From Eledone cirrhosa (taxonomy: Eukaryota), in contig OZ024750.1 of the NCBI GenBank assembly GCA_964016885.1, positions 12,958,001 to 13,022,000 on the forward strand: a stretch of DNA of 64,000 nt, given 5' to 3'. This document shows, in pieces, positions 334 through 63,755 of this stretch (the stretch's first letter is position 1; each line of letters starts with the position of its first letter). The notes beneath the pieces are model-generated. The model ran no database searches, was not told the origin of the DNA, and saw nothing but the letters and a program-made list of their open reading frames with translations. Position numbers and translations under genes: made by a program.

Positions 334-636
334 ATAATCCTCGTTTGGTCTTGACTGGGTTTGACATGTCACAATATTCACCTTTACCAATGGAATTTTC
401 TGCACAGACTCCAAAGTAATAATCCATGTCTTCTTCAAGACGAACAGCTCGGCAATATGTATCATATGCAGCAACCTTAGCAAGTTTTTGCCAGTCTTCT
501 GGTTTAAAAGCTGATATCTGTATATGATAGTTAGTTATTGCAGAACCGCCATCAGATTTTGGTGCATCCCATTCGAGTTCAACAAAGTCTTCACCAACTC
601 TACTGGCTCTGAGATCTAATGGAACTCCAGGCAATG
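334..636 (-). CDS. E86, FN3 class A1 (p1)
   Basis: 303 bp, AG/GT; the donor implies the gene continues beyond the window edge. Confidence 0.9.

Positions 637-63755: not shown

Follow-up and report, generated by a model that had tools for sequence, protein, structure and literature searches.

An Ig-free array of 142 FN3 domains in the predicted connectin of Eledone cirrhosa: a likely thick-filament strap with a proposed three-domain register

A stretch of the Eledone cirrhosa genome filled from end to end with FN3 exons raises the question of which protein these domains belong to, how their repeat has been maintained, and what such an array might do in octopod muscle. The window, the whole stretch of 64,000 nucleotides that was analysed, corresponds to C10:12958001-13022000, where C10 is its contig (OZ024750.1) in a 3.0 Gb assembly. 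In six-frame translation, minus-strand FN3 exons extend over the entire window, and all 86 exons between window positions 63755 and 334 have AG/GT ends, phase 1-1 and a length that is a multiple of 3. The first-pass annotation of this DNA had read them as 86 exons encoding at least 91 FN3 domains, with a mass of about 1 MDa. In-script splicing bears this out, with canonical ends in 86/86 exons and a stop-free product of 9,234 aa and 1.02 MDa that holds 91 domains, D1-D91 (Table 1); the Pfam family PF00041 was matched on the 4 window exons submitted. The annotation's count of at least 91 is right within the window, but the array is longer: the Ig-free run comprises 142 FN3 domains, of which 2 lie ahead of the window, 91 within it and 49 beyond it (C10:13024889-12918851). 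Every domain boundary in the array carries an intron except in exon 16, where five introns are absent; the 599-aa protein P0384, which has the same six domains, is 91% identical over 97% of this exon.

Table 1. Features of the FN3 array in the window (window positions; all on the minus strand)
Feature	Positions	Strand	Basis
D1-D91, 86 exons, middle of 142-domain run	334..63755	(-)	splicing + profile
D1-D27, strict ABC triplets, weak 9-period	46641..63755	(-)	lag 9 0.59 vs lag 3/6 0.55; p=0.008
Exon 16, six FN3 (D16-D21), intron-free	50465..52291	(-)	
9-domain unit 1, D28-D36, exons 23-31	39784..46297	(-)	
9-domain unit 2, D37-D45	33331..39217	(-)	
9-domain unit 3, D46-D54	26725..32729	(-)	
9-domain unit 4, D55-D63	21457..26151	(-)	
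9-domain unit 5, D64-D72	14379..20323	(-)	
9-domain unit 6, D73-D81	8047..13917	(-)	
9-domain unit 7, D82-D90	1183..7828	(-)	
D91, opening domain of next unit	334..636	(-)	
Homogenised zone D56-D87	4176..25687	(-)	DNA block identity between in-register units

No hidden Ig domain was found among 3,181 open reading frames of at least 20 aa, taken from either strand of the array region, where the best Ig-profile score was 8.1 bits; unrelated Ig domains used as a control scored above this value in 77/77 C-terminal parts and 70/77 N-terminal 35-mers. The scan covered frames of 20 codons or more, and smaller micro-exons are excluded in exons 5-16 by the spacing of a spliced contig of 20,040 nt from run X4. 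Eight listed pieces of this contig correspond, with exact ends, to exons 5, 6, 8, 9, 11, 12, 14 and 16; the offsets between them fit the unlisted exons exactly, so that no additional exon would fit anywhere from exon 5 to exon 16. The remainder 3' of exon 16, at 10,373 nt, equals exons 17-50 (10,344 nt) plus 29 nt, so that the contig, judged by length, would end where the near-identical units begin. Exon skipping is absent from it in exons 5-16 and, by length, up to exon 50, and introns are retained in the DNA contigs of X1. The intron following D63 contains a tandem repeat (window 20557-21353) that matches itself at offsets in multiples of 46 bp. The description of the array as free of Ig domains thus stands for the array and its introns; it does not extend to the protein, which has about 61 Ig domains upstream and 10 downstream.

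The surroundings of the array identify the gene. Along one strand the order is spectrin, Ig, acidic PEVK-like exons, Ig, mixed Ig/FN3, 142 FN3, mixed FN3/Ig, kinase and Ig. A profile search of 664 kb around the window gave 152 FN3 domains, namely 6 mixed with Ig, the run of 142, 3 that are widely spaced and 1 ahead of the kinase. The upstream Ig count was obtained with a home-made profile, 4/4 Ig exons submitted matched Pfam I-set (PF07679), and about ten further Ig domains lie downstream of the array and kinase region. Seven acidic giant open reading frames upstream of the array, of 1,118-4,726 aa and 14,256 aa in total, were compared with the PEVK rule of more than 40% P+E+V+K in 250-aa windows (PMC12063666); six of the seven satisfy it in 89-100% of windows and the seventh in 14%, with proline at only 4-7%. 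The longest is a single frame of 4,726 aa (14.2 kb; C10:13112404-13126581, minus strand), rich in E, T, V and I, repeats every 402 aa at an identity of 0.63, and may be a proline-poor, PEVK-like spring. Upstream of the Ig and PEVK-like part are spectrin and SESTD1-like exons (PF24915, E=1.6e-18; PF25101, E=2.3e-7); these two families and, more weakly, PF00435 were matched in 4 of the 20 frames submitted, among which no SEC14 profile match was obtained. A 'connectitin' model with SESTD1/spectrin upstream of connectin has been put forward (Hanashima et al. 2025, PMC12198301).

The kinase consists of four exons (C10:12887835-12885886) following an Ig-FN3 pair, matches Pfam Pkinase and has the usual catalytic motifs. 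Compared by eye, it is identical at 217 of 232 compared residues to Octopus sinensis Os_CON, XP_036371388.1, and clearly unlike the Os_twitchin row of supplement 3 of PMC12198301. The real twitchin lies on another contig, C1, near 362.17 Mb. The next kinase gene downstream is MYLK, with a kinase exon on the same strand about 210 kb away (C10:12674113-12674592, minus strand), which fits local clustering of the kinase family. Judged from sequence, the match to Os_CON, the twitchin on C1 and the downstream MYLK together assign the locus to octopod connectin, of the I-band titin clade, with an extent of at least 450 kb. Identification as twitchin was rejected on the different kinase, the gene on C1 and the lack of an Ig-Fn-Fn pattern in the array. 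As for linkage of array and kinase, the X4 contig spans only part of the array and the RefSeq ortholog stops before the kinase. Several further frames on the minus strand are of interest in their own right. One of 214 aa, unique and rich in S, Y, Q and H (C10:12913607-12914248), comes right after domain 140 and may be an alternative 3' end of a kinase-less form, since the RefSeq ortholog terminates in it. Another of 593 aa, rich in D, S and G (C10:13039460-13041238), lies between two Ig exons, has a phase-1 acceptor and no Pfam match, and is possibly a cassette exon because it is absent from the same ortholog. A third, of 1,950 aa, S/E-rich and with flanking Ig exons (C10:12775897-12781746), sits between the connectin kinase and MYLK. 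Pfam matches mark the upstream neighbors, on the minus strand, as genes for CutA1 and an alpha-type tubulin.

That ortholog, XP_029652063.1 (labelled Octopus vulgaris), carries 142 Ig-free FN3 domains that correspond one-to-one and in the same order to those of E. cirrhosa, as aligned by eye. It also shares the N-terminal stretch, acidic repeats, Ig order and terminal unique exon with the locus, although the model lacks the kinase present here. The protein is therefore not new, its ortholog being public, and a previously characterized ortholog, which the first-pass annotation had foreseen as removing novelty, exists in part: XP_029652063.1 is in RefSeq and among the sequences behind Fig. 1A and data S1 of Loreau et al. 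2025 (PMC12063666), the text of which calls lophotrochozoan titins only 'more mixed' and carries no analysis of the repeat. In Hanashima et al. 2025 (PMC12198301) the octopus kinase groups with connectin, the history of splits and fusions is not decided, and the Os_CON clade is treated as an I-band counterpart; no mention of an FN3 array, which here has 142 domains, was found there. Neither the triplet nor the 9-mer was found described in the literature searched, which comprised the text of papers outside subscription journals. The 3x3 hierarchy, the mollusc series of periods 3, 6 and 9, and homogenisation at fixed copy number accordingly appear to be undescribed.

The hierarchy itself is well marked. 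Over the 91 domains of the window, mean identity between domains is 0.36 at lag 1 and 0.35 at lag 2, rises to 0.51 at lags 3 and 6, and reaches 0.68 at lag 9, with 0.63 at lag 18 and 0.59 at lag 27, so that the autocorrelation peaks predicted at lags 3 and 9 are both present. Four near-identical units in D56-D87 inflate the height of the peak at lag 9, and because these are near-copies the older stretches were tested apart, by shuffling of whole triplets. A 9-period beyond the 3-period is found in D28-54 (p=0.001) and D91-117 (p=0.0004) and, more weakly, in D1-27 (p=0.008), where the diverged upstream period that had been proposed is seen in pairs such as D4 and D13 (0.73) and D10 and D19 (0.52). 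The seven complete units placed on E23-E85 correspond to D28-D90. The 9-period is clear over domains 28-113, its register running without slip, and gives way to a weak 3-period by 118-140. The claim of position-specific motifs holds as well, six independent units having 43 position-specific columns where shuffling gives 1.9 on average and at most 12 (200 shuffles). In a quick tree of domains 1-117, 6/9 positions are each confined to one side of a branch, and p3, p8 and p9 require 2-3 changes. Within the triplet the A and B domains are mostly neutral or basic and the C domains acidic, which amounts to a charge period of three: the net charge of C-class domains is 0 to -6 in 27/27 counted and negative in 26/27. 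The linker from B to C is SPF.

Within D56-D87 the domains of the four units are 92-100% identical, and DNA blocks of 0.4-1.3 kb, made up of exons and short introns, are 93-98% identical between in-register units. Such identity could signal an assembly artefact in which units were falsely duplicated and the array inflated. The near-identical exons are, however, separated by long introns that are unrelated between units, the array region contains no N letters, and the independent assembly behind XP_029652063.1 carries the same 142 domains one-to-one, which largely refutes this reading. In XP_029652063.1 the same four units are homogenised, and at several sites in p2, p3, p4 and p5 every one of the four copies carries residues particular to that species (by eye). 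Homogenisation within species at a count of 142 rules out false duplication, and an artefact is exceedingly improbable. Recent whole-unit duplication was likewise rejected, because the long introns differ and the ortholog has an equal count. The identity is instead read as patchy gene conversion, since unit copies that are closer within than between species, at a count constant at 142, point to gene conversion without change of length. Outside D56-D87 synonymous sites are near saturation (pS 0.5-0.8).

Ig-free FN3 runs of 11-40 domains, several of them in partial models, recur widely among titin-like models from animals other than chordates and ecdysozoans. They reach 40 domains in the snail Bulinus and the starfish Patiria, 31, 19 and 18 in the acorn worm Saccoglossus, 17, 10 and 6 in fragments from the limpet Lottia, and 11-14 in Lingula, leech and rotifers. 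The gastropod runs consist of the same A, B and C classes: domains 25-40 of Bulinus are collinear with domains 126-141 here, and a Lottia fragment is collinear with domains 129-138 of the octopod array. In the 17 FN3 domains of Lottia P0001, identity falls steadily from 0.72 through 0.65 to 0.57 at lags 3, 6 and 9, and in the 40 of Bulinus P0121 (KAH9498302.1) the values are 0.47, 0.45 and 0.41; neither set of models, which includes partial ones, has a lag-9 peak. The oyster protein XP_034304301.1 has 27 complete FN3 domains past its last Ig, mostly in triplets, the last of them forming a near-repeat of 6 domains at the point where the model stops (both by eye). On the sequences compared, then, the ABC triplet is molluscan, since the gastropod and oyster runs share it but not the 9-period, and the higher-order period is specific to lineage, at 3 in the limpet, 6 in the oyster and 9 in octopods. 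The ABC pattern is absent from the runs of Patiria XP_038047568.1 and Saccoglossus (40, 31 and 19 FN3), so the triplet is dispensable for Ig-free arrays in general, and the echinoderm and hemichordate runs may be separate expansions. All of these runs, from Lottia, Bulinus, oyster, Patiria, Saccoglossus, Lingula, leech and rotifers, are shorter than the 142 domains of the octopod array, and its 9-period was not seen in them. Among the matches listed from length-limited protein searches there was no long cephalopod array, only P0384 and P0387, the latter 90% identical to domains 101-104. Several long FN3-only matches of metagenomic origin (e.g. P0031, P0182, P0209) were excluded from the comparison, a link to muscle being improbable. 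The titin-like models P0014, P0176, P0192 and P0195, from nemertean, leech and rotifer, contain an Ig-Ig-Fn-Fn-Fn repeat, another non-vertebrate super-repeat, which precedes the FN3 run in the leech and rotifer models.

Among solved structures the best relatives are titin chains of the A-band, in the cardiac thick-filament entries 8g4l and 8q6t (E<1e-132), together with A84-A86. The fold search rests on a weak model of exon 16, predicted from no alignment, which is all-beta with six domains (pLDDT 61, pTM 0.23) and cannot give an axial pitch. The array is best read as a thick-filament-binding segment in which the triplet would be the working register. More specifically, it is likely, at a probability of roughly 55%, that the FN3 segment of octopod connectin acts as a long strap whose many contacts fasten the distal part of the molecule to the thick filament (myosin/paramyosin) along its end; A-band titin as the nearest relative by sequence and fold, the SPF linker and the charge period of three all support this. 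In such an arrangement the N-terminal Ig part would anchor at Z material, the acidic PEVK-like exons would act as a spring, and an FN3 rod of about 0.57 micrometre would bind the thick filament. The ABC triplet, in which an acidic domain follows two that are neutral to basic, would be the selected binding register because it is common to molluscs, and the 9-mer would be a lineage-specific higher-order duplication of three triplets, its register kept by unequal exchange and gene conversion and its positions later specialized. Against this reading, the identical count of 142 in two octopods and the 43 position-specific columns may mean that the 9-mer itself is selected.

Scale bears on the alternatives. 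If the 1,084-aa titin chain of 8g4l is taken as one 43-nm repeat, each domain would occupy about 3.9 nm, which gives 12.1 nm for a triplet, 36 nm for a 9-mer of 914 aa and 0.57 micrometre for the 142-domain run. Paramyosin cores repeat at 14.5-nm (PMC12040844), and the triplet, on this in-filament titin scaling, would be roughly one fifth too short unless the chain runs in a more extended form, a mismatch that also counts against the strap. The first-pass annotation had suggested that the array could act as a filament ruler. In its thick-filament form, with a triplet for each 14.5-nm crown and a 9-mer for three crowns (43.5 nm), independent of the vertebrate 11-domain repeat, the 3x3 hierarchy parallels the three myosin crowns per 43 nm (PMC10665186), the register does not slip over domains 28-113, and position-specific motifs survive where synonymous sites are near saturation. 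A domain count that matches XP_029652063.1 one-to-one, although the units exchange sequence actively, favors some length constraint. The ruler would, however, require 4.8 nm per domain, and the missing 9-period in limpet, snail and oyster models weakens it. Thick filaments of squid arm muscle, moreover, measure 7.4 micrometre (PMC4757648), far beyond the rod, so a whole-filament ruler is unlikely in long oblique fibers; no octopod thick-filament length was found in the literature searched. An anchor or template for the thick-filament end is plausible, whereas the ruler as stated is unlikely.

A nebulin-like ruler of the thin filament is a different proposal, in which the 9-mer (about 36-38 nm) would match the actin crossover or tropomyosin repeat. 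Thin-filament repeats are 36-38.5 nm, and 914 aa come to 36 nm by titin scaling, but actin geometry is conserved across molluscs and the 9-period is not, FN3 domains of the titin family are known thick-filament binders, and one third of the domains are acidic, all of which make this proposal very unlikely. The array might otherwise bind no filament at all and serve as a free I-band element, an extra stiff spacer or unfolding reserve for obliquely striated muscle with its large changes in length. The gene belongs to the I-band titin clade, an FN3 tandem occurs at the vertebrate titin I/A junction (8bxr, among the matches), and all exons are of symmetric phase 1, so that array length could possibly be tuned by skipping. 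This too is very unlikely, as the sequence class is of A-band type, the repeated position-specific surfaces and charge period suggest a repeating partner, and the X4 contig displays no skipping in exons 5-16 and, by length, up to exon 50.

Cephalopod muscle speed is thought to be tuned by filament length and not by myosin isoform (PMC4757648). The boldest claim, doubtful at present, is that octopods made an I-band titin into a vertebrate-scale template of the thick filament, a fixed-length rod of 142 FN3 domains with a triplet per crown, a 9-mer per three crowns and homogenised units. If true, it would give protostomes their first A-band ruler of titin type, an example of convergence in the design of molecular rulers. 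The nine position classes are ready epitopes and the 3/6/9 series is a natural comparison, which makes both the functional register and the placement of the rod on the thick filament directly testable.

Comparison with known systems sets the strap reading in context. Like the A-band of vertebrate titin, the array has FN3 domains of the same class, similar linkers, its SPF between B and C resembling titin's extended type [N/Y]PF (PMC10665226), a hierarchical repeat grown from the middle, and a kinase past an Ig-FN3 pair. The titin A-band super-repeats, in contrast, hold Ig domains in units of 7 and 11, the octopod array is Ig-free with periods of 3 and 9, and twitchin is a separate gene in octopods. 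The locus contains 152 FN3 domains and titin 132 (PMC10665186); a gene of the I-band clade itself carries more of them than human titin, alongside that twitchin. The proposal of a different giant architecture is thus sound in that the array resembles neither the 7- and 11-domain super-repeats nor Ig-Fn-Fn, and has to be amended in that it would be no separate protein but the FN3 segment of octopod connectin. Fly Sallimus and worm TTN-1 share with octopod connectin the clade, the N-terminal plan and a C-terminal FN3 cluster, though Sallimus has 5 FN3 domains to the 142 of the octopod array; their C-termini extend to where the A-band begins (PMC9886278), which favors the strap, and worm TTN-1 is known to bind myosin through Ig38-40, domains of Ig and not FN3 type, which counts against it. 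Twitchin and projectin have the FN3 class and the kinase family in common with the octopod protein, but their Ig-Fn-Fn pattern is absent from the array and their kinase differs.
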